A stretch of 62,689 nucleotides of DNA, filler included, from Diploschistes diacapsis (lineage: Eukaryota), in assembly GCA_023645945.1 (NCBI GenBank). It is 14 parts of 14 records of this genome, joined end to end, with 100 filler letters (N's around TTAATTAATTAA, not from the genome) between each part and the next. Parts side by side here need not be neighbours in the genome. Positions count along the whole stretch, not along the records: positions 1 to 21,710 come from JALAIB010000298.1; 13 more parts are not named here. The stretch is one strand, 5' to 3'. Below, piece by piece: positions 11,333-56,046 of the stretch. Within the stretch, counting starts at the first letter, position 1. Every line of letters begins with the position of its first letter. The position numbers and the translations under genes were made by a program. The notes below the pieces were generated by a model, which saw only the letters and a program-made list of their open reading frames with translations, was not told the origin of the DNA and ran no database searches.

Positions 11333-14300
11333 TTATACGCCTAACCAAAAGTTCTTATCCCGGTGTTCGTCCATCGTGCCCATCGAGGCTCCTCTTCGCT
11401 CACGCCCTCTCCAGACATGACTCTTGCTGGGTCGAATACTGTATTTACGGGCTGCTCCTAGGTTCTTTGCTAGGCTCTCATATGCCAGGTCTTCCTCAAT
11501 GCCTCTCCGCTTCATCTCGGAACCGACACGTGTTGACGGCGCTTTTGTCTTGTCCTCGATAAATGACTGCGTGCCTAGCGACTGCTGGTCAATCTTCTCG
11601 TACCATTGCACGTTCGCCTGTTCAAAATATGTGCAAGAGCAACCGCAGCCGGTGACACATCCTTCACTCAAGAGCGCGGCCTCTTGATATAACAAAGTAC
11701 GGCAAGCGACGTGCATAACATGCCCGCACTTCAAGCAAGGGGATGCCTTTCCCCAAATTGCCTCATCACAGAGGGTACATCGAACAGGCTCCGATCCTAA
11801 ATGGCATTTTGGGCATCTTGTGCGCTGATGGCCTTGGTTTGGATGCTTCGCTATGCCGCAATTCTGGCAGTGTATGCTCAGCTCGACTACCCCCCTGTTT
11901 GTTGAAGGGACATCTTGAGCAGATGACTTTTTACCAATAGAGAGGCTATCAGCCTCCTGTGTTTCGGAAAAGTGGCCATTATCCATGCCCGGTGTCTTAG
12001 CCCAGTCGTGATGTTTCAAAACCTCTGCGCGCTTAATTGGCAACTGCCACAAAGCTAGCATATCGGCGTAGCCTTCCCTGAATCCCGTACAGTATGGTTC
12101 TACATCTGCAATCAATGATGGTGAGTCTGAAAAACCGTCGAGCTGGAACTGATCTTGGTTCTTTAGTCGGATCGAAACCCTCTTTGGTTGGCTTGAATTC
12201 CAGGATACTTTCTTACTACAGTTGTTTTGTCTGTCAACGCCGACCTCGACAGCTTTCCTGGACAATCTTGCCTCGTACTTGTTGGACTGTCTACGCTGTC
12301 TATTCATGGCTACTTCCGCTGAGACATCTTGGCCTTGTGTAGCTGGAAAGTTTTCAAGCGGGCTAATACGCTTCTTGAGAAATGGCGCCGTTGGTGGTGA
12401 CGAAGAAGTAGAGGCGCTGAATGAAAACGGCCGTGAGAAAGAAGCTGCGAATGCACTTGCAAAGTTGGTAGATGATTTATGAATTGGTCGAATCAGCTCA
12501 GGGGAGCCGGAGAGCATATTAGCACCGTCGGGACCATCGGGCCTCCACCTATTAGTCCTAAGGTCAGTATAGCCTCTAAAACTCGTAAAGTTCAACGGGT
12601 CAGGCTCGGAAGTTGGACCTGCTGCAGGCGAGGATAAAGGCGAGTAAATTCGAATTGGCTTTGGCATCTTTATGTCCCCTTCCCTTGCCCTTTGCTTCAT
12701 TCCTTGACTACTGGCGTTTGTTGACGAGGGGAAATGGCTTGCTTTTGATATATGTGCGTAAAACGTTCCACCAATGACATCCTTTCCCTCCAAGTAGCCT
12801 ACATGATTTAGAATGCCTTTGTCACGATGTCCCCTTGTACCTAGCGCACATGACATTAAGGCCAGCATCTGTACATCGGCGATCCGTGAAAAATGAGCGA
12901 ACCTAAGGCAATTAGTATCATGTCAAGTTTGAGCAGAAATTCAAGGCTTACAGTTGTTGAATCAGTAACGAAGCACCAAAGGGGTGTTGGGCCCATCTAA
13001 CACGCCCACACGCATGCTGATTCTTCATATCCCTGTTACGCTTTGGCAAAAAGGAGCTTCTGTTCCTTTGTCTCCTGGTTTTTTGGACCACCGCATAGGT
13101 AGCCGAGCGTCCGGTGTTACTCTCAGAGTCGAAAACTTCCAAAGACACCTTATTGTAGAGAAGCATATCCAACAACGACCACACGTTGGCTAGATCCTCT
13201 TGATAAAAGGCCGACGCGACCTGCTCGTTTTTCTTACAAGAATCTGCACCAAAATGGGAGTATTCTCGGGCAAGCTGCTCTTTAGATGGAAGCAAGGTCG
13301 CGAAGTTGTGAATGTAAATAATAGATTTCGCGGAAGACAGTGAGTTCTTGGCCATGCTAGCACTTGCGGCCGAGTACAGTGTTTCATCCACTGGTTTTTC
13401 CGATGGAAGAAAGTGTAAGCCAAATCCTTCAGTTTCAAATACATGAGAGGGGAAGCCTAGCTCTTTAGAACTCAAATCCCTAAAGGACCTTGTAGAAGCT
13501 GATTCTGATCTCTCAGATTCGGATGTATCAGGCTCCGATGTAGACTCGCTGCTATCCAAGGTACCCATACTAGACACCAGCGATATACTTTTTGAGTTCT
13601 TGGTAATCTTGCCGAATCCATCAAGCAGTCTTCTTCGGCCTTTAGCTAATCCGTCTCGCTCACTAAATCGTAGTGTGCTAGCAAGACAACCTTGCTTCTC
13701 TTCTTTAGGGGGAAAGAAGCAGACCAGGCGCCCATCCTTAGCCCAAAATGCTCCACACATTCTCGGCAATGGCATATAGGCGTTGGGATTCGTTGTATTA
13801 AGCATACCCGAGCCACCAAGACCGAATTCATCGGTCTGACTTTCGTTGAAACCACCTACTTCGTCCTCTTCGTCGCTTGAGCTATCTCCTTCGTTCACTA
13901 AATCAGCAATGCTATTTTCCTGCTCTTCCTTTGTCCAAGAAATTGCTTCACCTACTGTTAGGTCACCTTGTAGATACCTCAGTATTGCTTCAAGCGAACT
14001 CCTGTGAAAACCTGCATAAGCTTCTCCGATGACTCTAGCATCATCTTGCAGCTTCTCCGATACTGTGCTGTCAAGAGAAGCGATCCTTTCGACAGCCAGC
14101 ACCGGCGCTTGCTCAGCAGGGTAAAACTCCGGGAAATCGATTCGGCATTTGAGGTACGAGGAGGCTTCTTTAGTGTCCCACAACCCGCGCATTGATAGTT
14201 TAACAAAACGATTCTTTACATCAATCTCTGGGAATTCGACTTTACTAAATTTTGTACCGACGTGGGCAATCTCTTCTCCTAGGGACTCAAATTCTTCCCA

Positions 14301-15665
14301 CTCTTTCGCTTCTCGAAAATCTCGTGCTGTTAAAGACGCTGCGCTTTGATCTAGCCCGGATTCCTTTTTGCCAATTTTGACCCCTTTCATCCAGGTAATA
14401 GGGTCCATGTCCCGACTCACATCTGCACGAAGGTTTGACCGTGTGGTAAGGAATTCACCACCAGCCCATCGTTCAAGTGTAGCTGATCGGGGCTGAAGAG
14501 TCATTCCATTTCCCTCATTCTGAGCCTCAGACTGTGGCAGGATTTCTCGGTATGTCCTGTACGGAGCTTGTTTTCGAGTCAAGTTCAAATCTTTGTGCGC
14601 TTCTCTCCCCTTCTCATAGCCAACCCTTGCTAGGTCATCATTATCGAGCGAGTGCAGACGAAGAATGCGATCGGCTCCCCAAGTAACAAGCTGGAATTCA
14701 CGATCGTCAACCCCATCCTCTATAGAACCACTGTACCTCCAAAGAAACTCTTTAACCTGATCGGTATGGCCATGGAAAGATTTAATAGGCGTAGAAGAGA
14801 CAGCGCCGTCTTCGCCCCTCACACGGCGATTATACAAATACAAGTTGTTGTCACCTCGTTGTGGCATGGCTAGAATTCCAGAGCCAAAGGGAGTATGGCG
14901 AGCCCTCCATACGGGAAACGGAGTACGTATAATGTGCTGTGGACTGTCTGCTTCGTCACGATAGTCCCAAAGCTTGATTGTATGGTCGAGTGAGCACGTA
15001 AGAAGTCCATGCTGGCGCTCTCTGTTCCAATCGAGGCCGTATATTTTTGTGTCATGCGCCTCAATAGAGCGCAACGGATAAGCGCCTTTCCGATCATCCC
15101 AGATCCGCAAAAACTTGTCGTGAGCGGATGCAATGACATGTGCATCCTGCCGGTTCCATTTGACTTGTGTAGCTCCCGCATACCAATCGCAGAATGTAAC
15201 AGCGGGTCTAGCGGGATGTCGAAGGTCCCAGCAGTGTACGAAACTGTCAATAGCACAGGTAGCTAAGACGTCCGGATGATGGGCAGAAAAATTAATGTCC
15301 GTTATAGCGCGACTATGTGCATGTAGGTAGTGCTCCACAGACGCACGGCGATCGCTCATTGCTAGGTTCCATACTAATGCCTTCTGGTTGGAAGTACTCA
15401 CAACCCAATAATCTCGTGAAGGGAATGGCGACCATTGCACGTCCGCGACCTCCCAAGGCGTATGATGAGGCAGGTGGCGAGGCGGTGCCCAGGGGGAATC
15501 AAGATCAATCACATGCAGGCCTTGTCGCGAAGCAAGGACCACGTCGCGTCCGCATGGAGATATTGACATGGAGCCGACGGGCTTGTTGACCTCGAAAGAT
15601 CCGTCTTTGCCGAAGGTTGAACTTCCAAAAACTGAGAGGACGTCGTGCGCCTTCGGATCATCCAT
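11333..15665 (-). CDS. MTC5: SEA/GATOR2 complex subunit Mtc5/Sea3 (WDR59): WD40 repeats, RWD domain, C-terminal Cys/His zinc-finger/RING; 2 exons
   Basis: 905-aa and 511-aa ORFs joined by intron 12951-12903. WD40 motifs (WEVADVQWSP, ATCAIDSFVHCWDLR); RWD-like IDFPEFYP; ADVQMLALMSC; C-terminal CTLC...CLKCGHVMHVAC...CVTGCGCSC. Confidence 0.93.
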
Positions 15666-16322
15666 TTCATGAGATTGGTAATACTCCTACCACATAGAAT
15701 AACTTGCAAGAGCCTTCCAATCACCATACTGATGTGGCTCGAGCATAGTTTTTCCCTAGAATAAGATGCTGCATTCATTGCTTTGTTGCATATAACCCAT
15801 TAATCATCTACGATTCTTTTAACCCTCCTAGGAGGCTTGAGGCCCAGAGGCTGTCTATCTCATTGGAGTGGTCGTCAATTTCAAGGCTTCTCGTACCAGC
15901 GTCTGTTGAAGTCTCAGAGTCCTTTGGAGGAATAAAGCAGCTGCGCATCAGTTAATTGCGGAATGAAGAAGCTTAACATACCTCTGCATATACAGAGGTA
16001 GCTGGCCGTTAGGGAGCTAGGAGGATACGTGGAGCGCCACAAACTCCACGTGATACTACCCAATCGGAATGATGCCGTTACCGCGGCTGCGGGAATAGGC
16101 TCTAGTTGTAGATAGGTGATGCAAATGACTTGGAGGACTATCAAGCTGGAACCTAGGCGAATATAAAATCATTCCTGAGCCTTCAGGCTTGACCTCTTCA
16201 CGGCTGCCAAACCAACGCAAAGGCGCTTGTGCCCTTATTGCCCTTCATCCATCGATTGCAACATTCAAGATAGTTAAGCGCCTACAGTAAGCTCTGCGCT
16301 GTACAGCGCAACGAATTGTGAT
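15666..16322. promoter_or_regulatory. Divergent intergenic region shared by MTC5 and UBC13
   Basis: Head-to-head ATGs at 15665 (-) and 16323 (+). Promoter role is inferred from position only. Confidence 0.5.
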
Positions 16323-16925
16323 ATGGCTACACTTCCAAAGAGAATCATTAAGGAGACGGAGCGCTTGATCGCTGAGCCGTAAGAGTGTCATTTACCTTCC
16401 CACAAGCCGAGAGATTAATATGCGACAGTGTGCCCGGTATCAGTGCTGTCCCACACGAAGACAATCTCCGATACTTCGATGTCATGATCCACGGTCCAGC
16501 CTCTTCACCATACGAAGGTATAAAAGAGCCGGCTGAGACTTAAAGCTGTCTCTGACGCCCTATTACAGGTGGCATTTTCAAACTCGAGCTCTTTCTACCA
16601 GAGGACTATCCGATGACACCACCCAAGATACGATTTCTGACGAAGATCTACCACCCCAATATTGACAAGCTCGGAAGAATATGTCTAGACGTTCTTAAGA
16701 GTGCGTGGGCTCTTGAAAGATACACTGGTCTGCCGCTGACCGTTTCAAGGTAACTGGTCACCCGCCTTACAGATCCGTACCATCCTACTTTCGATCCAAG
16801 CGCTACTCGGCGCACCAAATCCAGACGACCCCTTAGCAAACGACGTGGCCCAAAGATGGAAGGAAGATGAACCTGCGGCCATTCAAACGGCCAGAGAGTG
16901 GACTATGAACTATGCCGAAAGCTAG
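16323..16925 (+). CDS. UBC13: Ubiquitin-conjugating enzyme E2 Ubc13, 4 exons (absent from the ORF track)
   Basis: Spliced protein [37 protein letters not shown]...[74 protein letters not shown] motif and catalytic Cys present. Confidence 0.97.
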
Positions 16926-17622
16926 TGGGGGGGGCATACTTATGGAGACACAATTTTGTGATGGCTCTTCGTTGGAACTGGATTCCAACGTGAAGACATC
17001 ACATGCCATACGGGACAGAGACGCCATGCAAGCCACTTTATCAGGCTACTATTAAGATCATGAAGAGATCCCATTGAGGTGGAGGATCGGTTACCAGATC
17101 TAGCGTAGCTCAGTTGAATTCACAGTACCCGTTGCTTGCTATTGAACATTTTCGCTCTCTGCCTTCAACCTATATCTAGCATTACCCACGTCTGTCAAAG
17201 TGTTGCAGTATTGATGCTTCTACCATCTCCGAAGCCCTCTGCTCTATGGTTCTAGTGTGATATAAGGACGGCGCAGAAGGTACGCTTTCACATTATCCCA
17301 CATTCAAATTTCGGTTTTTCATCATTCATAAACACGGTGCCATTGCCCATACTTTCCCAGTCCGATCTATCCATTCCAATTTATCACCACCTGAACCTAG
17401 ATCTATTAAGGGCAGGAGGATGTAATACTCAAGCTTGCCACTTTTTTCTTGCTGCCCCTTGAGTCTTGGCGTCATCTGAAATGTGTAACTTTCATCCACG
17501 ATGCATTTGTAGATGAAGTGGAGGGTTGCATAGAAACCGTCTAGAACGAACGCTTTAAGAGCCTTGATGCTTTCAGGGACTAGGCTAATATACCGAAGTA
17601 CGAAGAACCATATGTGATATTG

Positions 17623-17722
17623 CAAAGCGCCAGTTTAGTACCGCTAGGCCACATAGCCAAAAGACCAACAATACTGGTTTATACCAGGTTGGAACTAAAC
17701 TGATATATATAGCGAAACCACA
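17623..17722. other. Dispersed ~100-nt element, copy 1 (candidate structured ncRNA or small repeat)
   Basis: About 85% identical by manual alignment to 52905-53007. Outer inverted repeat CAGTTTAGT/ACTAAACTG encloses hairpins. Confidence 0.7.
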
Positions 17723-17831
17723 TCCTCCTCACTTAAACTGTTTCGTCCCTGAAACGTTTATAGCTGGCAGGCAAGATGTACTATATATATAGATCCCAAA
17801 GGTTACCCTATTTGGTCCAAGGACTACACTA

Positions 17832-18639
17832 ATGGTATACCTTGATGGGTGTAAGGGCTTACCGAGCATCGAACCAGATCCCTGCCTACTCCCACTCACA
17901 AACCAGTATGGGGTAGGGACTGCAGAGGATGCTGTTGTCGTTCAGAGCATAGATTTTAAGAAAAAGCTAGAGGCTGTTTCCCATGCATATCCGAGTTAGT
18001 TAGGTCCTTAAACTGGAGCTTTCGCATCTGACAGTACCTATTAGAGTGGGACTTTGAGGAGATTCGAACCGTTATCGCCTCGAAAGGGTGTCTATCAGAT
18101 GGTTTTAATACCGAATGGAAACGCTTGCCAGCACGCACGGTTGCGGGCCAGAAGAACGCAGCCAAGGTCGACGTCGTCCACATTAACGCTATCGTGATCT
18201 ACTGCGCCGGGGAGGTTAATGTCGAGGCGTGCAAGTCCTGCCTCACGGGCTATGGACAATTCAGAGAGTATGTTTCTTATAGGCTCGATTCGGGCCTATT
18301 CGCTTCAAAGAATACTTGCGCCAATCGTTCTTGGAAGGCGCAAAATCGGTCGTGTAGTTGGCGTAAGTCTTTCTTATTCCATAATCGATCAGTACTGATT
18401 AGGTTCTATTAGTCGAACCATTGATGCCAGACATATCCAAGGCCCTTTTCGGTGGTGAAGTTGATACGCCACATTTTACTAAAGGAACGTTGGTCAAAAG
18501 CAAGGGCCAGAGATTGAGATGTGAGGCGAGATGCTCATACTCTAGTAGGAGGATGTGGTTTTGCTACGGATCTAAGCTATTAAACCTGAAAGGCTTAGCA
18601 GTAGACATTTTATTTGTAAACTTTAGCTACACAATTTGA
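17832..18639 (+). CDS. DUF3716-like Cys-motif protein, 3 exons, possibly degenerating
   Basis: ATG 17832; introns 17995-18044 and 18363-18412 keep the frame open to TGA 18639. Motif NAIVIYCAGEVNVEACKSCLTGYGQFREYVS...CANRSWKAQNRSCSW resembles DUF3716 with two expected Cys replaced. TATA-like tatatatatag near 17782. Confidence 0.55.
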
Positions 18640-18822
18640 ACACACTATGCAGTCGAATCAGACCCACAGCTGACATTTGTCGGTTAACCTTTCCGTTTGG
18701 TAACCCCATCCGTTTCTAGGGTTCAGTCTATCAGCCAGGGATACGACAGGCCACTCAAAAGACATGGATATGTTCGACAGAGCCCTCTGCAGGGGTTGAG
18801 AACGAAACCACCTTTAGAAAGA

Positions 18823-19788
18823 ATGAACACAAGGACAACGGAAATGCCAGCCACCGAGACCATCAAAAGACCTAGAAGCACCAGAGCGACTCAGAAGTCC
18901 CAGGTAATGCCGCGCATTAGGACGACTCTTTCAGATAAATCAATCTCAACATCGTTGGGTGATGCCAAGGCTTTGGAAACATCAAGCCCAGCTGAATTAT
19001 CACCGGCCAAATCTACCCTTTCTAGCATATTCCATGGCAAGAAGAAGAAGAAGAAGTCAGGTGTAGCAGACAAGACAAGTGAACGGATTTTCCGCAAGAT
19101 GTCTAACTCTTTCAAAGAAAGTCGTGGCGGTGATCCTTTTATCGAGAGGCTTGAGAGGCAGGCATCATTCAGCACTACCACTGATAGCAAATCTGACAAC
19201 ATGGATATCAACCCTGAAGACCTGAAAGCAGTTTCGAATGACTTAGGCTGGAGCATTCCGCAGGGCAAGCTTGTGCAAAACCTGAAGGAGAACAAGACTC
19301 ACACCGAAGAGAATGTGAGTGCTACATAACTTAGAAAAATGTCTCTTCGCTCTCGTGCTAATATGTGATGCTAGGAGAAACTCCTCCGCCAACTTTTCGA
19401 TTGCGAGAGATCTAAGCGTACGAGCGAGCCAAAGCATCCATCTCACAACAATCAATTCAATCAACGCAATTTGTGGTGTTACACGTGCTTTGGGTCATGT
19501 TACCTCTGCTCAAGTCATTGCTGCATAATCGACGAAATTCGTAGAGAGTTGAGTAGTATGGAAGGTGGTGGCAAGAAAGCCAAAGACCTTGCTCGCCATG
19601 CCCAGAGGATCTTCAACCTTTGGGCGCATGGCAAGGATGTCCCAACGTTCATTCAGTGCTCCGAGTGCAAAAAATGGGTGTGCCCAAAGTGTATATCCAT
19701 TTGTACCTCATCTATATGCCAGGTAGCCCGGTGCAAGAAGTGCACGCCGGATTTATGGATGAAATGCGACTGGCACAAGGACATGTGA
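18823..19788 (+). CDS. Uncharacterised protein: basic low-complexity N-terminus plus Cys-rich putative Zn-binding C-terminus, at least 2 exons
   Basis: ORF 18697-19329 splices in frame via intron 19315-19374 (gtgagt...gctaat...tag) to WCYTCFGSCYLCSSHCC...CSECKKWVCPKCISICTSSICQVARCKKC...CDWH. Start codon and exact 3' end are uncertain. Confidence 0.7.
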
Positions 19789-20171
19789 GTGGGGACAAGA
19801 GAGCTGGGTTCCCTAAGGGTCAAAGGGGGCAGCAGCTAACAGTGGGAGAGGAGGAGGTGCTGAAGCAGATAGCCTTCGACTGTGTTCGAGGCTCATGATC
19901 TTTATTCGGGAATAATTAACTTCATTAAAATAATATCTATCATGAACCTTATAACAAGGGAGAAGGCAGAGGCTCGATCAGTCATTGTACGATAGATCCC
20001 CCATTCCTTTCAGATGCAGAGACTTCATTGCAGTTCTATAGTAATTCGCCTCTAGCTTGAATACTGTAGGGCTGAGGACTGACCTAAGCGCACACTCCAT
20101 CAAATTAACCCGTCACGACTTCAATAGAAATCAGTCCACCATCTAGGTTACGTTCATTACCTACCGCTATC

Positions 20172-20875
20172 ATGCGTACTTACGACGACACCTTTGGAGG
20201 TACAAAAATCTACCCGGGGAAGGTGAGTTCTTTGTCAGGGGTCACTTTGCTAGTCCTACGAGGAACTGGCAACTCCTTTACTCTATCCCAGAGGTTTACC
20301 GGGAACTTTAAAGACTAACAAGCTAACACCAATCGAATAGGGCAAGCTCTTCGTCCGCGGTGACAGCAAAATCTTCCGCTTTCAAAGCGGCAAATCCGAG
20401 TCCCTCTTCCTCCAGAAAAAGAACCCCCGCCGAATCGCATGGACGGTCTTATTCCGGAGACAACATAGGAAGGGTATCTCAGAGGTCAGTGGACAATTGC
20501 GGAGCCGGGCCATAAATATGACCAGAAAGCGCATAATGAGCATGTCTTCGAAAACTATCAAGACTGATTTATCACTATCAACAGGAAGCTGCCAAGAAGC
20601 GCACACGCCGAACCGTAAAGCAACAGCGTGGCATCGTCGGCGCATCCCTCGACGTGATCAAAGAGAGGCGAAACCAGCGCCCCGAAGCCCGCTCAGCCGC
20701 TCGGCAACAAGCTGTCAAGGACGCCAAGGAGAAGAAGGCCGCAGCTGAGAGCAAGAAGAAGGCGGAGAAAGCCAAAACGGCGGCGAAGGCTGCGTCGGGA
20801 GGCGCGACCGGAAGCAAGGTGTCGAAGATGCAGACCAAGGGCTCGGCCCCGAAGGTGCAGGCGAGGACTAAGTGA
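20172..20875 (+). CDS. RPL24: 60S ribosomal protein L24 (eL24), 3 exons
   Basis: [94 protein letters not shown]; introns 20223-20340 and 20485-20584. Confidence 0.97.
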
Positions 20876-21206
20876 GATGGCTGGAGGCCGGGGTTTCGGG
20901 GATATGGAGCATCTGATATTACGAATGCGAACAACCATTGTAAGATCAAAGTGCAGGGTTATAAATGCATGGCAAAGATATATGGGTGGTACGAGACCTG
21001 TATGGACACTATCCAGCCTTTCTTTGGACGCTGGAGACACAAGGGCCATCCAAGACTTTAGGCGATCGGCAAAGCGGACAGGAGCCCCTTGTACAACTTT
21101 CGAGATCGTCTTAAAAGACCAAAACCCGCTATATGTAACCAGTTCGTCGGGTTTCTGAAAGTCAAATATCGCACTCCAATCGCCAATCACGCCCCAGTAC
21201 GTCTCC

Positions 21207-21710: not shown

Positions 21711-21810
21711 NNNNNNNNNNNNNNNNNNNNNNNNNNNNNNNNNNNNNNNNNNNNTTAATTAATTAANNNNNNNNNNNNNNNNNNNNNNNNNNNNNNNNNN
21801 NNNNNNNNNN
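21711..21810. other. Artificial contig spacer, first of 13. Others: 23316-23415, 24920-25019, 26523-26622, 28123-28222, 29722-29821, 31320-31419, 32918-33017, 34515-34614, 36112-36211, 57905-58004, 59500-59599, 61095-61194
   Basis: Identical N44-TTAATTAATTAA-N44 linker with stops in all six frames. Small contigs decrease in length from 1505 to 1495 bp. Confidence 0.99.
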
Positions 21811-22342
21811 TATAATTAAAATAAGATTAAGAATCTATCGATATTTTAAGCTTATTTTATCGTTATAAATGATCGAATTTTTAATCGTAATTAAGAACAT
21901 CGTTTTAGACGGAATAAGATTAATAAATTAAAACCTCGTTATCGAACTAATTATATGAAAAATATATAATATATAAAACATATAAATAACGACGATGCCA
22001 TAAATCTCGACGTTTTAATTAACAAAACCGGTTTTAATTAGAAGAAAAGGATAAAGGGATCCAAGGAAGGACCTTCGGCTAATAAAAAGAAATGCTTCGA
22101 ATGTAATAAGATAGGTTACTTCGCCCAAGATTATAGATCAAAGAATAAGATCGTTAGGGAAGATATCCTAACTGCGACGGATCAACATCTTAACGTAACT
22201 GATAATTATCTTATAGAGGATCCAACAATTGACGGATGTTTTTAGAAGGAAGTTATAGTAGAATCGGATACTATAACCTGGTAGGGCGATACCGACGAAG
22301 CTATTAATGAAGAAATCGAAACCACGTCTTTATCGATAATAA
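21811..22342 (+). mobile_element. RIP-degraded LTR-retrotransposon gag fragment (zinc knuckle)
   Basis: Near 22085-22150 translates KKKCFECNKIGYFAQDYRSK, a CX2CX4HX4C knuckle with H>Y and C>Y transitions. Confidence 0.7.
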
Positions 22343-22344
22343 TA

Positions 22345-23315
22345 ACGTGTTTCACGGCGATTCCGGCCACCCCCAGATTCCAGCCACCTCAAATTACTAC
22401 CGCCAATATTCTACGGTTTTTAAATATGACCTATTCATCGCAATTAGAATCTAATCGATCAAATCGAATCTATCTTCCTCCTCTTTATCCTTCTCGATTT
22501 TAGAAACGCGACGACAATTTTTACGCGTTATAAATCGTTTTAAAATTATTTAACTTAATTTAACCCGAATTATTATTTCAAGAACTTCGTCTATATTAAA
22601 TATAAAACGATTTTCTAATTCGATTCGTTTATTTAATTTACGTTTTTTATGATTATTAAGAAGCGTTTTTTGCTCTCGGTTTTCTTTACGAAGCGTTATG
22701 AATTTAATATACGTCGATTTAAGTATACGGGTTATTCGATTCGAATAACGTCGAATCGGATTAATTAGTTTTAGAACGGCTCGCAACGTCTGATTAAATT
22801 CTTTATTAGTTTTTCGCAGTTCGGTCGTATTTGGTGAAAAGTTATATAATAAGGATAAATCTAAATCGAATTGATTCGAGGTTAAAAAAGGGTTGTAAAA
22901 TGGAGGTGAAAGGGTCCGATAGGTCGAATAGAGTTTATTAAATACGGTTATAGGATTAATAGACTATAATTTAATATTTATAAAATTCATCTGAACGTTT
23001 CGACTCGTAACAGCTCGATTCCGAATTATTAAAAATAATTCGATTTATTCCGAACGTGTCATGCGCGATTTATTTAGTCGAGTAATATGATCCGTCTTTT
23101 ACGCCAACGCGTTTTTCAACGGCGAAAATACTGCGATATCGAATGGTTAAAGAAGATAAGAATTATGCGGTGGTAATATTATTAAATCGATTCGATTAGA
23201 CATATAAAAACGAATAATGTTAGCGGTAATATGACTGTTATAACCGTTTATAATTAATAAACGACGCGTTTCGGGTCTATTCGGTCTAGTTAAAGATTTA
23301 AAGATACGTATAAAT
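22345..23315 (-). mobile_element. Pogo/Fot1-like DNA transposon family 1, 3' half with TIR (RIP-degraded)
   Basis: TA followed by TIR ACGTGTTTCACGGCGATTCCGGCCACCCCCAGATTCCAGCCACC. Minus strand reads RRLLIINGYNSHITANII...LIILPPHNSYLL*PFDIAVFSPLK, the DDE_1 motif DGHxSH...LPPHSSHxLQPLD. Confidence 0.92.
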
Positions 23316-23415
23316 NNNNNNNNNNNNNNNNNNNNNNNNNNNNNNNNNNNNNNNNNNNNTTAATTAATTAANNNNNNNNNNNNNNNNNNNNNNNNNNNNN
23401 NNNNNNNNNNNNNNN

Positions 23416-23683
23416 AAATAAAATATTTTCTGCTTGGTTAAAGCAGATTTTAGAAGATACAAATATCCGCTTTTTGAGTCGTTATTTTTAATTCGCTTAA
23501 AAAACTTAACTGATTACGTAATCAATGTGCACTTTTTATATATGATAGATAATTGATTGAAAAGTAATCTTTTGAAAAATAAAAAAAATAACGCTTAATT
23601 TCGATGAATTATTGAAGATTTAAACTATTTCTTGGCAAAAGTGGCCGGAATCTGGGGGTGGCCGGAATCCCCGTGAAACACGT
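23416..23683. mobile_element. Partial second copy (right arm and TIR) of the fold-back MITE
   Basis: Closely matches about 59170-59434 and ends ...GGAATCCCCGTGAAACACGT followed by TA. Confidence 0.9.
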
Positions 23684-25531
23684 TATGCTTATAATTCTTA
23701 TATTTAATTCTTACGATCTATCATCGGATTTAATATGACGGGCCTTTTTCGATAAATTTAAAAAAGGAAGGATACGGTCTAGTATAATAGGTTCAGCCTT
23801 TTCGAGATAGCGTATTTTTTCTTTAGGATTCAGAAAAGGAACCGGACTAGGATACATTATTAATAATGTTTCTCTATTTAATTCCGCATTTTTCATTATC
23901 TTTTCGTATTTATTTACTTTAAATAACTAATTTATTACTTCGGGGTTATTTTCCGTAAGTTACGCCCATCTGTTATATTTATCTTTTTAGTTTTTTATTT
24001 CTTTTTCTCTTGTCTTAATCAGCTCATCATTAACTTAAATAGCTGTAAGTACGGCGTTATGTTATTTTCGGGTTTTAGGTTTGATTTAACTCTATAACTA
24101 TATACGAACGTAAGAAATAAACGTGATAATTAATATATAAATTATTAAAATCATATTTTAAATTATAACAGATACTTATCCGGAGGTTAAAACCTTCCTT
24201 CTTAAATTATCTAAAAGTTCTAAACGGTCGGAATAGTTTTTCTTCTAGTCGGGCGTTTCGGTACGCGCTTTGCTTTCGCTATTTCTAATATATTTAATTT
24301 TAATAACGTAACCGAAGAAAAGAACCTTTATTACCAGACAAATCAATAAAAAAGAATAAAAGAAGGATCGTAAAAATCGAATCTTAGTATTAATCTAAAA
24401 TCATAATAATTCAACATTAAAGGACTAGATTATAGCCAGCTTTTAAAACACTAAAGCTTAAATCTAAACTATACGAAAAGAATCTTATGCTTACCTTTCA
24501 TTTAAAACGCTTAACGGCTAATAAAAGAAAAATAACAAAACAAATCAACCAAAAAGCGAATATGAAAGTAAAATGAAATCTTAATATAAAAAAATAAATC
24601 TTAATATCAAGATTAAGATTTATAATAAATTATAACATAAACCTGAATATAAATCTAACATACACCTAAACATAATACATTCTTTATTTATTTTATTTTC
24701 TTTAACCATTAAGCCTATCTTTCTTTTCATTTGCTTTTTATTATCTAATTAATCTTTACTTTATCCTTCCTTTTACTAGCCTTGAATTTCTATTCTTTGG
24801 TTTAGAAACCTTTTACGGCAACATAGAACGAGATATACACCTTAAAAATAAAGATAATACTATTATTTCAGATATTAATATCAAGATAAAAGATATCGAC
24901 ATCGTAGATACTATTCTTCNNNNNNNNNNNNNNNNNNNNNNNNNNNNNNNNNNNNNNNNNNNNTTAATTAATTAANNNNNNNNNNNNNNNNNNNNNNNNN
25001 NNNNNNNNNNNNNNNNNNNTTTATTTATATACGCGTTTTTAGGCCTATTGGTGTTATAAAGGTTTTCTCGAGTTATATAATGGTTTAAACCCGTTTTTCA
25101 TACTTTAAATTAAATTAAAAATTACGTAAAAATAAATACATTTTAATCGTAAATTAATTAAACGTCGATTATAAAACGGCGTAATTCCGTTATAAAGAAA
25201 TTTAGGATTTATTAAATATTATTAATAGACCGAATCCCTAGTTATTAAACGGAAAAGATTTATAAGTTTATAAACCCGTTTTACTTTCGGATCAGAACAG
25301 GTCGTATAAATAAATCACCTAAGAAAGAACCCGGGACAAAAAGCTTAAATAGGTATTATATCGGTAATTAATAAATTCCGAAAATAGGCGAAATAGCAGG
25401 CCATAGGCAGAATTTTTAATTAAAACTGGGTTATTTCTTATTAATATCGATCGTTAGCCTTCCGAAGCTTTATCGCAGGATATACGTATGCCAGACGGGG
25501 TAGAAATGTTTTTAAAAAGTTCTTTATTATA

Positions 25532-26522
25532 ACGTGTTTGACGGTGAGTCCGGCCACCCCCAGAGTCCGGCCACCTCAAATCACTATTTCATCTTACATT
25601 CGATTTTTCTCAACAATGACTACCTCGTATCGCAATAATTCGATTCTAATAAAATCTAATATTAACGATTATTTACAGGCCCTAAAATCATAATAATATA
25701 TCAGCATTCGAGAGGTTGCCCGCGCATTTAAAGTATCTCAATCGACTATTATGGATCGACTTAATGAAGCTTAATCATGCTTTAATAACCACGAAACGAC
25801 TTAAATCCTTTTAAATTCAAAAAACAGACATTAATACGATAGATTACACGTTTTATATAAATTAACTTTCTTACATCGCTTACGTTAATAATAAATATAG
25901 CCGAAAAGATTTGACGCGAATATATTGGATTCGAATTTAAAAATCACGATCGCGAATTTTTAACCTATCGATAAATATTAGATATCGCGATTTCGTAAAC
26001 GATTTCCTAAAATTACTATATTTAGACAAAATAAATCGAGTTTAATAAATTTTATGCGATAAATTACGAAACTATACAACGAGAATTCGATATAGTAATA
26101 ATTTAATACAATAAGAGGCAATACGCGCCCGAATATATCTATAATATAAACGAATCAGGTTTTAGTATTAATAATAATTCTTTTTTTAAAACCTTCGTTT
26201 CGAGTCGAACAGACTCGAATTAAAAAATTATTAAAAAAAAATAAAAATGGATAACTACAATCGAATATATTTCAATTATTAACGAAACATTATCGTCTAT
26301 AATAATTTTTAAAACATTATATATTAATATTAATTAAATTCTAATCGAAACGCCTCGAAACTAACTATTTAATATTAATAATAAAGAATAAATAACAAAT
26401 AAACACGGATATTAATAACTTATACGTATTTTTAAACCTTTAATTAGACCGAATCGACCCGAAACGCGTCGTTTATTAATTATAAATAATTATAACAATT
26501 ATATTACCGTTAATATTATTCG
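25532..26522 (+). mobile_element. Pogo/Fot1-like family 1, 5' half with TIR and transposase start (RIP-degraded)
   Basis: TA followed by ACGTGTTTGACGGTGAGTCCGGCCACCCCCAGAGTCCGGCCACC; ATG 25616; HTH-like SIREVARAFKVSQSTIMDRL. The last ~100 bp match the reverse complement of about 23215-23315, giving a reconstructed element of about 1.86 kb. Confidence 0.9.
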
Positions 26523-26622
26523 NNNNNNNNNNNNNNNNNNNNNNNNNNNNNNNNNNNNNNNNNNNNTTAATTAATTAANNNNNNNNNNNNNNNNNNNNNN
26601 NNNNNNNNNNNNNNNNNNNNNN

Positions 26623-26827
26623 GAGAAAAGGAAGGGGAAGTGGGAGAAGGAAGGGTGTACGAGGAGAGGAGGATCTCGATCTCGAGCGGCGTGGGAACGG
26701 GTGGTGAAGAAGAAGCTGAAGCGGAAGGTAGAGGTGGGCTGAGCAGGGAAGAGAGGGTGAGGTAGAGGGATTCGGGAGTGTGGTCGCGCTGTGGTACAGG
26801 AGACTCGAATCGGGGTGAGGGAGGCAT
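26623..26827 (-). CDS. Possible N-terminal fragment of a host gene (LEIEIL motif recalls ECM9/PTAR1-like prenyltransferase-alpha repeat proteins), cut by contig end
   Basis: MPPSPRFESPVPQRDHTPESLYLTLSSLL...PLEIEILLSSYTLP in non-RIP sequence. Family assignment is from memory and weak. Confidence 0.3.
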
Positions 26828-27853
26828 GGAGGAGGGCGAAGGGCGGGAGGTCGGGATTGGAGGGAAAGGAGGCGGGCCAAGGAGAGCGGCTACTGGTTTG
26901 GGGTGCTTCGTACGAAACTGCTAGAACACTAGAATTAGACACTCCCTCTTCTTTGTTGTAAATGGGTGCGTTCATTTAACGTTCAAGAAGAGAGAGGGGG
27001 CCGATGCTCGAGTTGGGTCTGTCAAGCTCTTCCGTAGAAAGGTGTTTCCACGGTCCCGGCCATTTATTGCGGATGGGCTACCGGCAGGACGTTGACATGA
27101 GGTAAGTGCAGTTTGTGAGGCAGCTGGATGCTCCTTAAACAATTTGCACAGTTTATCTCATCTTGAATATGTCAAAGCTCTATTTGGCTTCATACTGTCG
27201 CCTACTATGTAGGTGAACATCTATCCATGGCAGTCAAAGGTGATTAATTCAATTGTATTCCCAAACTCCCAACAGACGAAGCGTATTTTTGACCCTAGAA
27301 TAACAGTCCAAGTGCAGTGCGCCACTGAATGTGATCGATCGTACTGCAATGCCCTATTTACACCGGTGGTGTAATGAACGCGCACATGGTTGCTGACCTG
27401 CGAAGCAAATAAGGAAAGAAACATCGTAACTTGTCTTGCGCCGAGGTTAAGCTCTCGTAGTTCTCTAAGGAACCCATGAGATGGTGATGACCTGTCCGAG
27501 CAATGTATCGAAACCCTGTCCTCCGCCAAGGTTTCTAGCCCAGTCATCAAAGCTCTATTATTATGAAGGCGAGCACGTCGCACATACCCAGGAGCACAAC
27601 GAAGGCCTCCCTCTCGATTTGGTGTCAGATTATTAATTTTTAGGACGCATCACTAGTCCTATTAACAATAGTTAAACATCCTACCAGTAGTTATAGACCC
27701 TTAGGAGATTATTAGATTATTAATCTAAATATTGGATTAATGATATAATAATATTTAAACTGTGGATTTAATAAATGTTAAATAATTAGATTTACTATTA
27801 TATTAAATTATAGATCGAATAATGTTGAATTATAAATCTAATATTTATCGGAG

Positions 27854-28122
27854 TAGGCTGGCCGTTGCGTGCCACGGTCACTGACACGGACATTATCGCG
27901 AAAATTTTCTCGGCACGGACATTTTTACGGATACTATACTGCAGTAAAAACACGAACACGGACATTACGATTAAAAATTTTAAAATACGGATATTTCTAC
28001 GGACATTATATTATAATAAAAACACGGACACGAATATTACGATTAAAAATTTTAAAATACGGACATTTTTACGGACATTATATTATAGTAAAAGCACGGA
28101 CACGGACACTACGGCTAAAAAT
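27854..28122 (+). mobile_element. hAT-like element, end type A, plus 72-bp tandem array
   Basis: Terminus TAGGCTGGCCGTTGCGTGCCACGGTCACTGACACGG followed by 72-bp ACACGGAC-rich units (27986 vs 28058). Confidence 0.7.
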
Positions 28123-28529
28123 NNNNNNNNNNNNNNNNNNNNNNNNNNNNNNNNNNNNNNNNNNNNTTAATTAATTAANNNNNNNNNNNNNNNNNNNNNN
28201 NNNNNNNNNNNNNNNNNNNNNNGATATAAGGAAGGTTAGGTTAAAGTAAGGCAATAACGTTTTATATTTAAGATATATAATGTACGTGTCTGGACTGAAA
28301 GCAAACCTTATATTAGAATAAAAGTTATGTAAAGTAGGATTACGGGGAAATTTTTATTAAAAAAGTTTATATCTATACGACAAGGACGGTCGGATTATTT
28401 TTATATATAAGAAAAAGAATGGAGTTTATTACTCGAGCAAAATTATTAAAAAAAAACATGCGTATAGAGTAACTGCGTATTTAGTAACTGAACCTGAATC
28501 TAAACTAAACTTAAAAGTTTAGTTTAATA

Positions 28530-28999
28530 AAAATAGTTATCAATTATAACACGCACGTATGACTTATATAAGACTTAAGAAGCTTTAGAATCTGTACGAA
28601 GTTACGACTTTTGCTAATTTTACCCGTATCGTATCTTATACGGATAAGATATACTAATTAATCAAATTTAGGTAATAGATTGGCCGTACGTTGATTAAAT
28701 ATAAGCAAAATATCTTAAATTTAATAAGTATCGATATTTATAAACCGTTCTTAAAATCATTTAATAACAATTAATACCTTATAAAAATTATAAATAATTC
28801 TTCGCGAAAAATCTGATCTATCTTTTATAAAACTCGAAAGAATATTATTCGTATTTTATAATTTTAAACAAAATTAATTTCTATAATCGAAAATTAAAGG
28901 AGAAGTTTAAGAATTTAGATGGAACCGATAGTATTATATACGTCAAATTAAAATAATATTGCCGAAAGATTTATATAAATTACCGAGATAAACATCCGT
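28530..28999 (+). mobile_element. RIP-degraded Ty1/Copia GAG-pre-integrase and integrase fragment
   Basis: YQL*HARMTYIR (LWHxRxxH-like) and LNLISIDIYKPFLKSFNNN*YLIKIINNSSRKI* (LxLVxxDICGP...Y...D..SR..W-like). Confidence 0.75.
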
Positions 29000-29721
29000 T
29001 GTCAGTATGTACTCAAATTGATTTGTGAAGTGAAGATGCCTCCAAAAGCTATGGCTACCATCGAGCTCTTTATAGCTACTATTGTAGCTATTAAGCGGGT
29101 GGATGCCCAATGGCATCATGTCTTATGGCGTCATAGGCGACGCCAGCGAGGGTAGGGACAAGCGAGCTTAGTAAGAACAAGCGATTCTTTTTAGTAGTAT
29201 TATAATTATTATAATATTTACCGATATAAAAATGCTTATGTTTATATAAATAATATTTTAAATAAGTACCGAATAAGCGAGATAAAACCCTCGATATTCG
29301 TTTTAAAATATTCTAATAATATGTTTAGTATTATTCCCTTTTTTTATCTTTAAATTAATCTTTACTTTTTTATCCAGCTTATTTTTATAGCGTAGATATG
29401 ATTCTAGTTTTATATCTTTTATAGTTTAGTTTTTACAGCGCCGGCGTGCCTTGTTTTGAATTCGAGGATCCGGTCTGTCGAGTGTTTTTATAGCTCTCGC
29501 TTTATGATTTATATATCGTCGGTAATATTATATCTTAGTTATTGTATTAGATATTGTATATTTTATTTACGTCTTTTGCGTACCCGTCGCTTTGTTAATA
29601 GTCGTTTTATCTCGTATTCTTCGTCGATTTCGATCGTCATAAACGGCGGCGGTAAGGATCGTTTGCGGTAAGGATCGTTAGCTGGGTCTAGTACCGGCTC
29701 GAGGTGCGCAATGTTAATAAT
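29000..29721 (-). mobile_element. Gypsy chromovirus 3' end: chromodomain, PPT and 3' LTR (about 29330-29000)
   Basis: Minus strand IAHLEPVLDPANDPY...EEYEIKRLLTKR...QYLIQ*LRY. Purine tract at 29331-29347. LTR ends ...AATTTGAGTACATACTGACA and is homologous to 30620-30816 and 31420-31590. Confidence 0.85.
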
Positions 29722-30155
29722 NNNNNNNNNNNNNNNNNNNNNNNNNNNNNNNNNNNNNNNNNNNNTTAATTAATTAANNNNNNNNNNNNNNNNNNNNNNN
29801 NNNNNNNNNNNNNNNNNNNNNAGATTTAATTTATCTAAAAAAATTTAAATTTTAATTAAACCGATCGGAAGTAATATTAATAATAAAGCTTAACGGATCC
29901 CGTTGGATATAAAAATCTACGCAGTAGGATATCTTCATAGATTAAGACCTATAGACTTCAATATATCCATTACGTTGCTCAACAAGACAAACTAACCCAT
30001 TTAGGTTAATAATCTGACACAGGTGGTGCTCCGAATCATCTCGCGTAGATTCGATGCTTCCTTTCCTCGGACCTGACTCCGACCATACTTTTTTCCTATC
30101 GGACTTTCCCGACATGTACGCTCGCTTTGTCAGCAGCGGAACTTAACTTAACGTA

Positions 30156-30619
30156 ACGTCTTTCATAAGTCATCCGCCCATATAAGTCATTCGCCCACCT
30201 ACCCCCCATTCTACATGTTTTTATTCTTATAACATAACTAATTTAGGTTATAATTAAAAAAATTTATTTAATTAGTATTATAGCGTTACGAGCATGTACG
30301 GGCAGTATATTCGTACGAACTATATAGGCTGCATCGTGATGGAGCGCGTGTTTTTTACGGAAAGGTATTATGTTCTTTCGAAGCTAAAATACTATTTATA
30401 TTTAATCTTATACGATTCTGTCTTTTCTATACGGTCAAAATATTTTTATATAATATAAAAGTAACTGGATTCGATCGTTTTTGTTTTCGCTTTTAATTTG
30501 CAGCGCGTAAAACGACGTTTTCGTTAACGAGAAATACGTCGTTATATATCGTTATTTAATAGTCTTTAATAAGTTAATTTAAAGCGTGATTTATTAAACT
30601 TATTAGATTTATCGTACGA
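30156..30619 (-). mobile_element. Pogo/Fot1-like family 2, 3' end with TIR
   Basis: TA followed by ACGTCTTTCATAAGTCATCCGCCCATATAAGTCATTCGCCCACC, which has an internal direct repeat. Minus strand RAPSRCSLYSSYEYTARTC is a RIP-mutated C-terminal zinc knuckle. Confidence 0.8.
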
Positions 30620-31319
30620 TGTTAAAGATATCTGTAGTAGCGATTGAGCTACTGGGGGTGTCGCTTGCTCTTGCCCTCGCCAGCGTCGCTCATGACGCCA
30701 TGGGTTATGATGCCGCTGGTCATCCACCCACCTGTAGTAGTTATAAGGGCTCGCTGCCCACCTAGCTTTCAGAGAATCATCTTCTTCCCACATAATAATT
30801 TGAGCCTATCTTGACATTTGGTAGCAACGATTGTTCGACCAATTTTCAGACCGTCTTTAAAGCTCCAACAACAAGTTTTTATTTATATTAATCCTCTCTT
30901 GCGGATTAGAATTCATATTAAAGCTTAATCTTTATGAACTTCCCCCTTCCCCTCAACCTGCAGTGGCCAGAGTTTATTTTATATTTTATTTTATTCTTCT
31001 TTTATTTTTTTAATTAAAGTGAGATCGACCTTTAATTAAATATATCGAGCTTATCTTTCGGTCCTTTTATAAATAATTTAAGCCTGCTTTAAAACTATCT
31101 ACTATCACCTCATGTCTTGAAAGTTATTTTTAATTAAGATTTCTCGGATCTGTTATTTGCGGAAATGCCCAGCATCGAAAGCAAATGCGTTCACTAATAT
31201 GAATCAATCTTGCTTAAAGGACGGCTTTCCGGATCGACTATTTTAGTAAGAAATCTTTATATTAAAATAGCTGATAAAGGAATAACGAGACAATTTCGTT
31301 TTAAAAATATTATAATTAC
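30620..31319 (+). mobile_element. Gypsy-type 5' LTR (about 30620-30816), PBS-like TTTGGTAGC and internal leader
   Basis: TG...TTGACA boundaries; homology to the LTR at 29000-29190 (reverse strand); TGG-containing PBS-like motif just downstream. Confidence 0.75.
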
Positions 31320-31419
31320 NNNNNNNNNNNNNNNNNNNNNNNNNNNNNNNNNNNNNNNNNNNNTTAATTAATTAANNNNNNNNNNNNNNNNNNNNNNNNN
31401 NNNNNNNNNNNNNNNNNNN

Positions 31420-31590
31420 TTCGCTTATACTTACTAGGCGCGCTTGCTCCTGCCCTCGTCGCTGTCGCTATGACGCCAGGGCCACGATGCCATTAGGCAT
31501 CCACGCGGTGTAGCTATAAAGGCTCGCCGCCCTCACTAGCTATTTGCAATCCATCTTTCTCACGCACAAATTTGAAGCTGTATAGCAATA
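31420..31590 (+). mobile_element. Third, diverged copy of the same LTR family (partial)
   Basis: Shared blocks CGCTTGCTC..GCCCTCG..GTCGCT.ATGACGCCA...GATGCC...CATCCAC...TATAA.GGCTCG. Confidence 0.75.
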
Positions 31591-32423
31591 TAGACGAGAA
31601 AGGGATCTAACTCGGCGCTAAAAAACGTACGAAAGTCGTCGTACATATCCTTTATCGTCAAATCGATCGCTAGCGCTTAATCGCGAATAATCGCGATTTA
31701 GCGACGATAATCGAGACGATCTCGATTAGAAAAAAATGGCTTTCTCTTTTAATTATTTTTAAAAGCAAAAAGCTATAAACAGAATCAATAAAAAATATTA
31801 TTCTTTTAAATAAGTCTACGCTTCAATATTTATAAATCTATTAATAATTTATAGATATAAAGATCTATAAGTTATATCTTTTAATTAATATAATATTATT
31901 CCGTTTTATCTATAATGAATGTAATAGATTTTCGATTCCGAGAATGTTTCTAAACTACGTTCGCCGTAGGCCTAAAAAATCCTATTTATGAACGATTACG
32001 AGAATCAAATCTCGCTCTCGTTCCTAAACTAAATAACGAATAAAAGGATTTTAGCGATATATTTGCTAACGTATACCTTTCACGTCCTCCAGTTTTTAAA
32101 TATTAGCTTATTTAATTCATTTACGTATGTTTATAAGAAACGAGTCGGGACGTTATTATAATAAAACATTATTTATATTAATAAATACTTTTTTTTTAAA
32201 TTCTTATTAACGCTCGAACAAATGTTTATATTATTAGAAACGCTCGCGTCGCGTAAAAAAACGCCGGCATCGAATCTTTCGACTTTTTTAAACCGATTTT
32301 TAAGATTCCCGACGCCGTCGACGACTTTTTTAACGTTTTTAAAACTCGTTATATCTTATTTACGATGTTTCGAACCTTTCGAGAAATAAAATTTTTAAAG
32401 AACTCGACTTTAGACTTTCGGTA

Positions 32424-32680
32424 ACGTGTTTCACGGGGATTCCGGCCACCCCCAGATTCCGGCCACCTTAAATCATTACCGCCAACATTCTACGGTTTTT
32501 AGATATAACCTGTTCGTCGCAATTAAAATCTAATCGATTTAAATCGAATCTATTTTCCTTTTTTTATTCTTCTCGATTTTAAAAACGCGACGACGTTTTT
32601 TACGCGTTATAAATCGTTTCGAAACTATTCGATTCGATTTAACCCGAATTATTATTTTAAGAATTTCGTTTGTATTAAAC
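32424..32680 (-). mobile_element. Pogo/Fot1-like family 1 3' end, second copy, interrupted by the hAT-like element
   Basis: TA plus the same 3' TIR; sequence parallels 22345-22600. Confidence 0.9.
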
Positions 32681-32917
32681 TAGGCTGGCCGTCACGGACA
32701 CCGACACGGCCGTGACAGTATCCGTGTTTTAAAATTTTTAGCCGTAATGTCCGTGTCCGTGCTTTTATTATAATATAATGTTCGTGGAAGTATCCGTGTT
32801 TTAAATTTTTTAATCGTAATATCCGTATCCGTATTTTTATTATAATATAATGTTCGTAAAAGTATCCGTATTTTAAAATTTTTAATCGTAATATTCGTAT
32901 TAATAAATATATTATCG
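32681..32917 (-). mobile_element. hAT-like element, end type B, plus 72-bp array
   Basis: TAGGCTGGCCGTCACGGACACCGACACGGCCGTG followed by reverse-oriented 72-bp units. Confidence 0.7.
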
Positions 32918-33017
32918 NNNNNNNNNNNNNNNNNNNNNNNNNNNNNNNNNNNNNNNNNNNNTTAATTAATTAANNNNNNNNNNNNNNNNNNNNNNNNNNN
33001 NNNNNNNNNNNNNNNNN

Positions 33018-34118
33018 ATATTAACGTAATAACGATAAAAATAATACGCGGACGAGTACCGACGCCTTATTAAAGAAATCAATTCCGGCGACTCGGTTTA
33101 ATTAAATATATATAACATTAAAATCACTCGAGCCTGTAAGAAATTAAATAATAAATAAAACGGCCCCTATAATGTCCTACGAAAAATAAACGATATGAAC
33201 TTTAAGCTAAATTTATTAACGTCGATAAAGTAATTCAAAACTTTTTACTCGTTTTTATTTTCGAAAGACCCGTAAGATTTTTTAAAAAAATAGACGTATT
33301 CTAAACTATTTCCGATAAAAACGAAAGACGGAAAAGAATAAGAAATTAAGGAGATCCTTGACGCCAAAAGAGGCCCCGAGCGAGGAATAAACGTCCAGTA
33401 TAAAATATATTGGGTAAAATAGCCTATCGACGATAGTTAATATCCCGCCGTTAACTTCGAAAATGCCTTCGAAATCCTACGAGAATTTTATTAATTAAAT
33501 CCCGAAAAAATAAAACTCCCGTAACTAATAATACCCGGGGATAGGCAACCTACGCTAATAAGAACTACAGACGGAAGCGAACTTTCAAAATAAAACGATA
33601 TCGATCATCACGACGACCATATTTTCCTATAGAATCTAAAAGCGTATTTAACTAAAAACGACGCTAAAAGAAATTCAAAGAAACGGAAATATCTATTACG
33701 AAAGAATAACGGGTATTCTTTTAAATAAATTAGAAAAAAAGATGAAAATCGAGGTAAAAATTAATTAAAAAAAAATATCGCGTTTATAAGAAACACAAAC
33801 ATTTAAAAAAGGAGGTAATAAGATAGTTTAGTTTAGGGACCTGCCAAGCTGGGCCTGTCAAGCCCCGGTAGGGTTAATGCCCAGATGTTTGCCAAGATAC
33901 GGCAAGGTTAAGAAATGGTTATGTAAACGGATAGTCCTCGAACCCTAATAAATCCGACATTTATATTACTTAACGGTACCTTCCTCCCACCTAAATAATT
34001 TTTTCTTTAGCTTTTCGAATCGAGACCTTTTACCTGTAGATACTCAAGCTACACCTAATCCTTCCGGATCAGGTCCAGCCCCCGGTAGAGTAATATCCTT
34101 TCCTACGCTGGCGTTTCA
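33018..34118 (+). mobile_element. Gypsy chromovirus 3' end: integrase GPY motif, chromodomain, PPT and LTR (about 33819-34118)
   Basis: KKLNNK*NGPY and E*EIKEILDAK...VQYKIYWVK*PIDDS*YPAVNFENAFEILREFY; purine tract AAAAAAGGAGG near 33805-33815. Confidence 0.85.
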
Positions 34119-34262
34119 CGTAATACTTTTTAAACTTATCTTTATAATTTACTAAATTCGCCGAAAATTCCTATATATCTTAACTCGCCGGATATTTTTT
34201 TTATCTAATTTAATACCTACCTTCTTTCGCGTTAATAATCCTTTTAACTTCGTACTCGTTCT

Positions 34263-34514: not shown

Positions 34515-34668
34515 NNNNNNNNNNNNNNNNNNNNNNNNNNNNNNNNNNNNNNNNNNNNTTAATTAATTAANNNNNNNNNNNNNNNNNNNNNNNNNNNNNN
34601 NNNNNNNNNNNNNNATATTAGATCTTTCGGCGAATTATCGGGTCGATAATATTAGAAAAAAGAAATAA

Positions 34669-56000: not shown

Positions 56001-56046
<46 letters not shown>

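Follow-up and report, generated by a model that had tools for sequence, protein, structure and literature searches.

The two copies of a non-coding element found in a window of 62,689 nucleotides from Diploschistes diacapsis belong to a dispersed family of about 110 bp, which is present, with sharp common ends, in at least three related genomes (those behind the DNA runs X1-X3 described below) and is read as having roughly 100-300 copies per genome. That these are interspersed repeats of some kind which are mobile, or once were, can be stated with high confidence. More specifically, and with rather less assurance, the balance of the evidence favours a miniature, non-autonomous DNA transposon of MITE-like type, which occurs as a short non-coding repeat, dispersed in high copy number, in a lichen-forming ascomycete and its close relatives, the element being considered to work like a MITE and not being claimed as a proven member of that class. 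In ordinary terms, this is a short interspersed repeat family, probably a MITE, and new as judged from literature searches.

The window and the DNA runs compared

The window is a string of contigs and not one stretch of chromosome, with 13 spacers of the form N44-TTAATTAATTAA-N44 between contigs. According to the GC profile, a 21.7-kb contig (1-21710) is followed by nine AT-rich contigs of about 1.5 kb, by a second 21.7-kb contig (36212-57904) and by three more short AT-rich ones. The gene set is of the ascomycete type, and includes WD40, an E2 ubiquitin-conjugating enzyme, L24e, GPP34, UCH, TBCC and a poly-Q protein. Among the further open frames on the + strand, an adjacent pair at 48268-49334 matches the Tle1-like phospholipase/DUF2235 catalytic domain (E 3e-32 and 2e-27) and probably represents a single fungal hydrolase gene split by an intron, and a 447-aa frame at 55480-56820 lacks any Pfam domain and includes a long stretch of poly-glutamine. 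The AT-rich contigs of about 1.5 kb (21711-36211 and 57905-62689), with 27-37% GC, have in common 72-nt tandem units rich in TATCCGTGTCCGTG as well as other repeats, and look like fragments of degraded repeat regions.

Public DNA runs were compared by means of the words of 12900-20900, of which a lichen metagenome (X1) holds a share of 0.99, a named relative (X2) 0.49 and a rock metagenome (X3) 0.36; two more runs (X4 and X5) hold next to none. X1 is the probable source sample and is not independent of the window, and the metagenome runs may include DNA of other organisms. The DNA contigs of X1-X4 were aligned to 17200-18700 at a likeness of at least 80%. The ends of the element, its target-site duplications and its covariation were judged from the two window copies together with contig summary tables.

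The two copies and their setting

In its extent as first annotated (17623-17722), copy 1 agrees with copy 2 in 87 of 103 columns of a MAFFT alignment, very close to the roughly 88 of 104 counted by hand in the first-pass annotation; the remainder consists of three gap columns, eight transitions and five transversions. Within the window, blastn recovers the pair at an E value of 6e-12, and no third full copy was found there by nhmmer or blastn. The similarity is confined to the element: the 100-nt flanks show ungapped identities of 23% and 26%, which is the chance level, and the 10 nt directly 5' of copy 2 (52895-52904) are diverged, with 2 of 10 identical to copy 1. The N-spacers divide the two copies, which had already been assigned to separate contigs.

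The same annotation described both copies as intergenic, non-coding and not AT-degraded, a description that the ORF and Pfam scans and the base composition uphold. Copy 1 lies between the 3' end of the UQ_con E2 gene and a DUF3716 ORF, and copy 2 about 1.1 kb downstream of the GPP34 gene. No Pfam domain falls over either copy, and the ORFs that cross the element are without a Pfam match. The GC contents of the copies, 42% and 47%, indicate that they are not AT-degraded and, taken together with the 8:5 ratio of transitions to transversions, that a RIP signature is absent. The coordinates of the two copies and of their internal features are collected in Table 1.

Table 1. Positions of the element copies, of their internal features and of a neighbouring candidate, counted along the whole window
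Feature	Position	Strand	Remarks
Copy 1, decayed family member	17613-17722	+	extent from contig loose ends and depth; starts earlier than the 17623 first annotated
Copy 2	52905-53007	+	nearer to the family majority in hairpin and 3' end
Subterminal inverted repeat, 5' arm (outer stem of the first-pass annotation)	17631-17642		12 nt, 92% complementary to 17691-17702
Subterminal inverted repeat, 3' arm	17691-17702		11/12 complementary to the 5' arm
CCGCTAGGCCACAT block	17641-17654		identical in both copies; reverse complement has A-box-like TGGCCTAGCGG
Central hairpin of copy 1, CAATACTGG/loop/CCAGGTTGG	17669-17692		3/9 pairs broken relative to the family majority
Central hairpin of copy 2, CAATACTGG/CCAGTATTG	52953-52976		perfect 9-bp stem, 6-nt loop
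Possible strongly diverged inverted relative	18544-18649	-	weak gapped alignment, score 45; only the 3' end clearly related

Copy number and dispersal

At the likeness applied, 17200-18700 is matched by 140 contigs of X1, 250 of X2 and 86 of X3, and by none of X4. The summed word depth reaches 26,323 (X1), 12,228 (X2) and 984 (X3) in the bin 17608-17658, and 14,282, 5,377 and 417, respectively, in the bin 17659-17709, as against 87.6-166.8, 73.8-82.7 and about 3.9 in nearby single-copy contigs and 167, 83 and 0 in the preceding bin (17557-17607). The jump is confined to approximately 17613-17722 and amounts to some 150-300 times the depth of the single-copy flanks in the three DNA runs, summed contig depth not being equivalent to copy number. 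Individual contigs point in the same direction: the family letter at 17683 is found on 22, 28 and 8 separate contigs of X1, X2 and X3, respectively, which implies many distinct copies. Moreover, among the matches listed, at least four long X1 contigs (5,051-22,575 nt) contain a copy with 8-13 differing letters, which is situated well inside three of them and at the end of the fourth. With these depths, and with copies embedded in different long contigs, the early suggestion of many copies genome-wide is confirmed. The copies diverge from one another by roughly 8-15%. A pattern scan of public metagenome, genome and viral contig collections returned no matches to more copies.

The same contigs delimit the element. 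Their loose ends pile up before 17613 and 17624 on one side and behind 17711 and 17722 on the other, with 17, 22 and 9 contigs (X1, X2 and X3) ending before 17613. Beyond these points the flanks are unrelated, as indicated by the low agreement of the loose-end consensus (0.42-0.57 at 17613/17624 and 17711/17722); in all three runs, AG stands directly before the family start TGTGATATTGC and C directly after ...ACCACA. The family starts at TGTGATATTGC, about 10 nt before the first position of the original annotation.

Copy 1 is a decayed member of the family, as judged from three uncompensated changes in its main hairpin with respect to the family majority. Most of the contig depth differs from copy 1 at 17678 (T>A), 17683 (A>G), 17688 (G>T), 17689 (T>A) and 17691 (G>T), and the majority letters at 17688, 17689 and 17691, which are those of copy 2, turn CCAGGTTGG into CCAGTATTG, the perfect partner of CAATACTGG. 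The 3' loose-end consensus, TGCGAGACCACA, likewise equals the 3' end of copy 2. Since, on either side of copy 1, contigs of X2 extend from unique flanking sequence into the element, this copy occupies the same locus in X2 and represents an old insertion common to it. One contig of X2 contains an internal-deletion derivative, with a joint 17632->17692 at which 59 internal nucleotides are replaced by 5, so that what remains is a short hairpin formed by the outer inverted repeat.

Internal structure of the element

From its ends inwards, the element is built of a terminal repeat of 11 nt, inverted at 8 of 11 positions (TGTGATATTGC versus the complement of GCGAAACCACA), which is followed on both arms by CAGTTTAGT (11/12). 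The latter forms the outer stem, CAGTTTAGT/ACTAAACTG, with nine pairs kept in both copies, two of them through G-U on the + strand; this agrees with the first description of the stem, according to which copy 2 maintains it on that strand. Next comes the CCGCTAGGCCACAT block, reported as invariant from the beginning, which shows no majority variant among the 40 of 66 variant rows listed. In the central hairpin of copy 2, the arm 52968-52976 is a self reverse match to 52953-52961. The loop of this hairpin reads TTTATA in copy 1 and ATTCTG in copy 2, and the previously noticed difference at three of six positions is therefore real; in other members, known from loose ends, it reads CATTGTG, CACTGTG or CATCGTG, the stem being kept while the loop varies. 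The small GCC-AAAA-GACC hairpin initially proposed does not appear in the minimum-energy folds, which form a GGC(C)/(G)GCC hairpin in its place.

Compared with shuffled sequences, folding of the + strand gives z values of -4.0 and -2.8 for copies 1 and 2, respectively, and that of the - strand -1.3 and -2.1. As a whole, the element is not more self-complementary than shuffles, with scores of 61 for copy 1 (shuffle mean 52.5, sd 8.1) and 55 for copy 2 (shuffle mean 56.3). When copy 1 is compared with copy 2, changes on both sides of a pair are seen in 0 of 19 pairs of the consensus fold for the + strand and in 1 of 22 pairs of the - strand fold, two sequences having no power either way.

Searches for known RNA classes

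The first-pass annotation held that the element does not fit the patterns of tRNA, snRNA, hammerhead, HDV, twister or TPP, and the searches are in accord with it. Rfam 15, whose families include hammerhead, HDV-like, twister, pistol and hatchet ribozymes, snRNAs, snoRNAs, 5S and Y RNA, gave no match at the gathering score over the whole window; at E<=10 there was none over copy 1, and over copy 2 a sole chance match to SRP (E=8), which lies outside the element. By eye, the hammerhead core, twister and the motifs of H/ACA or C/D snoRNAs are absent from both copies, which have no RUGAUGA and contain CUGA and ACA without the layout of a snoRNA. ARAGORN found no tRNA in the whole window, either by default or with introns allowed. 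A tRNA, with or without an intron, was rejected, as no gene is called and calls appear only at the 70-80% thresholds, where they are inconsistent: at ps80 with introns one weak call is made in copy 1 and none in copy 2, and at ps70 two and one, respectively, of undefined type.

A probable MITE-like mode of spread

Inverted ends, which are weak in this case, combine with small size, absence of coding capacity, uniform length, high copy number and intergenic location in the layout by which MITEs are defined. At about 110 bp, the element is well under the 500-600 bp expected of these non-coding repeats, and the summed depth and the common loose ends reveal the high copy number, homogeneous size and unrelated flanks that are also typical of them. 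Under this reading, a transposase encoded elsewhere in the genome would recognise the terminal and subterminal inverted repeats (TGTGATATTGC.../...GCGAAACCACA, then CAGTTTAGT), and would cut the element and paste it into intergenic DNA. The three-way fold that makes the element look 'RNA-like' would, on this view, result incidentally from the inverted repeats and the internal palindrome, and would not prove an RNA product. No transposase domain was detected in the 124 window ORFs scanned (75 + 49).

The fungal MITEs with which the element was compared, by description only, are Guest from Neurospora crassa, of about 98 bp, mimp from Fusarium oxysporum and EFT-m from Epichloe festucae. These have clear terminal repeats and target-site duplications, whereas the inverted repeats are weak here (8/11 terminal, 11/12 subterminal) and no direct repeat of at least 3 nt is found at the boundaries common to copies 1 and 2, the direct repeats of 3-5 nt that do occur being restricted to boundaries at which the two copies do not match. 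The absence of a target-site duplication nevertheless weighs little, since two old copies were examined. A paper on Epichloe MITEs (PMC3227409) describes small, degenerate fungal families of up to about 100 full-length copies, with within-family identities of 49-90%, and, as in the present case, their members are small, non-coding and interspersed near genes, with homogeneous size, tens to 100 or more copies and a low-to-moderate identity between copies. According to the same paper, MITEs are shorter than the roughly 400 bp that RIP requires, and their parent element is often not found (PMC3227409). With about 110 bp, the element described here would also be too short for RIP, which may be how it keeps a normal GC content. 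MITEs have been annotated in a lichen-forming fungus as well (PMC8773270). The searches of the lichen MITE literature yielded general TE surveys, in which the element family itself was not found, and neither the 14-nt core CCGCTAGGCCACAT nor its complement was found in print by literal text search.

Alternative explanations

Read from the - strand, the element might instead be a SINE-like or Pol III small RNA element spread by retroposition, an explanation that is unlikely. Fungal tRNA-derived SINEs, such as MgSINE, are also short interspersed repeats, and the - strand bears a TATA-like TATATATAT/CATATATG upstream, the A-box-like 11-mer TGGCCTAGCGG about 50 nt further on and a 5' part of about 20 nt, GGCYATGTGGCCTAGCGGT, which we take to resemble the acceptor and D arm of a tRNA. 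In addition, the 30-nt loose-end consensus before 17613 opens with an A-run in X1, X2 and X3, equivalent to a T-rich tract some 20-30 nt past the - strand end that would be similar to a Pol III terminator, although its agreement is only 0.42-0.44. The A-box-like motif had been reported without a B box, and this combination persists: no B box can be recognised by eye, and no run of at least four T follows either strand of either window copy, the downstream side of the - strand included. Unlike in tRNA-derived SINEs, where it is near the 5' end, the A-box is located some 70 nt inside the conserved unit; nor is there a poly(A) or simple-repeat tail at either end, or a tRNA fold recognised by ARAGORN by default or with introns.

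A second group of explanations places the RNA itself at the centre. It is improbable that the family is a mobile structured small RNA multiplying in lichen-forming fungi, whether as a three-way junction of about 100 nt or as a Pol III unit of the other strand. If it were, selection on the transcript would maintain the 9-bp hairpin and the CCGCTAGGCCACAT core, and the family would constitute a new SINE-like or ribozyme-bearing class without a tRNA, 5S or 7SL head. Less probable still is a functional, multi-copy, structured RNA of the + strand, i.e., a new ncRNA or a self-cleaving ribozyme carried by a mobile element, which would adopt the fold of a three-way junction made of a long closing stem, the GGCC hairpin and the 9-bp hairpin. 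The two copies do fold similarly on this strand, more stably than shuffles (z -4.0 and -2.8), and two substitutions in the closing stem result in G-U on the + strand where C-A would result on the - strand. The 9-bp stem is also kept with differing loops (ATTCTG and the three variants of the loose ends), a pattern that would fit selection on a folded transcript as well. However, the chance that two transitions both land as G-U on one strand is about 1 in 2 to 1 in 4, no pair out of 19 has changes on both sides, and in the hairpin of copy 1 three changes are uncompensated. Moreover, the element matches none of the Rfam families at E<=10, including those of ribozymes, the hammerhead core is absent by eye and neither copy shows a conserved promoter or terminator on the + strand. 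That the copies diverge by 8-15% is characteristic of decaying repeats and not of selected RNA genes.

Taken together, the ncRNA or ribozyme reading retains a small chance. It was the one preferred in the first-pass annotation and has gained nothing, in view of the lack of Rfam and tRNA matches and of the 0/19 pairs, whereas the option of a SINE or mini-transposon, listed beside it, has gained from the high copy number. The annotation had also named the result that would speak against its proposal, namely many copies with neither covariation nor transcription, and the many copies, one half of that result, have been found. The family would gain in interest if it were both transcribed and subject to selection on its structure.

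It is also very unlikely that the copies are very short solo LTRs, left behind by recombination between the two LTRs of a retrotransposon. The high copy number would be explained in this manner, and the element starts with TGTG and ends with CACA, has a short inverted repeat (TGTGAT.../...ACCACA) and includes an internal TATA-like run. Against this, no 5-bp duplication stands beside either copy, no purine tract abuts the 5' end among the 18 of 146 loose-end rows listed, and the consensus after ...ACCACA consists of C followed by A/T-rich sequence (agreement 0.5-0.66), with no primer-binding site of the TGG type. The usual length of fungal LTRs is also far above 110 bp.

Introner-like elements, introns of about 100 nt that are present in many copies, have stable predicted folds and are known from Dothideomycetes and other fungi, are similar in length, in the strong predicted fold and in their many near-identical to diverged copies, but they are spliceosomal introns of genes with GT, branch point and AG, whereas the two copies in this window are intergenic, the 3' end of the family reads ...ACCACAC and not AG, and GTTTAG on the + strand lacks G at position 5; this candidate was rejected.

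Significance of the family

The practical gain is that a false lead is removed, as a conserved, well-folding 'orphan' of 100 nt resembles an RNA gene and it is the copy-number test that identifies it as an interspersed repeat. Lichen genomics thereby gains a short, abundant, RIP-escaping repeat family that is common to at least three related genomes. From a practical perspective, the family breaks short-read contigs, as contigs of X1 and X2 end inside the element, and it could serve as an insertion-polymorphism marker.

Repeats in the neighbourhood of copy 1

On the other side of the DUF3716 ORF from copy 1, a blastn/nhmmer search showed that 18547-18566 is complementary to 17710-17729 at 19 of 20 positions (E 0.001), a match that runs 7 nt past the end common to copies 1 and 2. 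Depth is raised over 18526-18678 in all three runs and, within 18628-18678, reaches 2,398 versus 74 in X2 and 504 versus 3.9 in X3, with loose ends at 18624 and 18660. The stretch 18544-18678 is possibly a diverged sister family. A composite transposon, formed by copy 1 and this inverted relative around the DUF3716 ORF, was discarded, as the depth over 17863-18525 is that of single-copy sequence in each of the three runs.

Directly 3' of copy 1, the 90 nt of 17730-17819 are absent from one contig of X3, which shows the joint 17729->17820, and in X1 the segment 17700-17864 is represented by two variant short contigs with a depth of about 200 each, versus 88 in the neighbouring single-copy sequence. 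The region 17730-17819 is a second small insertion/deletion or a low-copy repeat beside copy 1.
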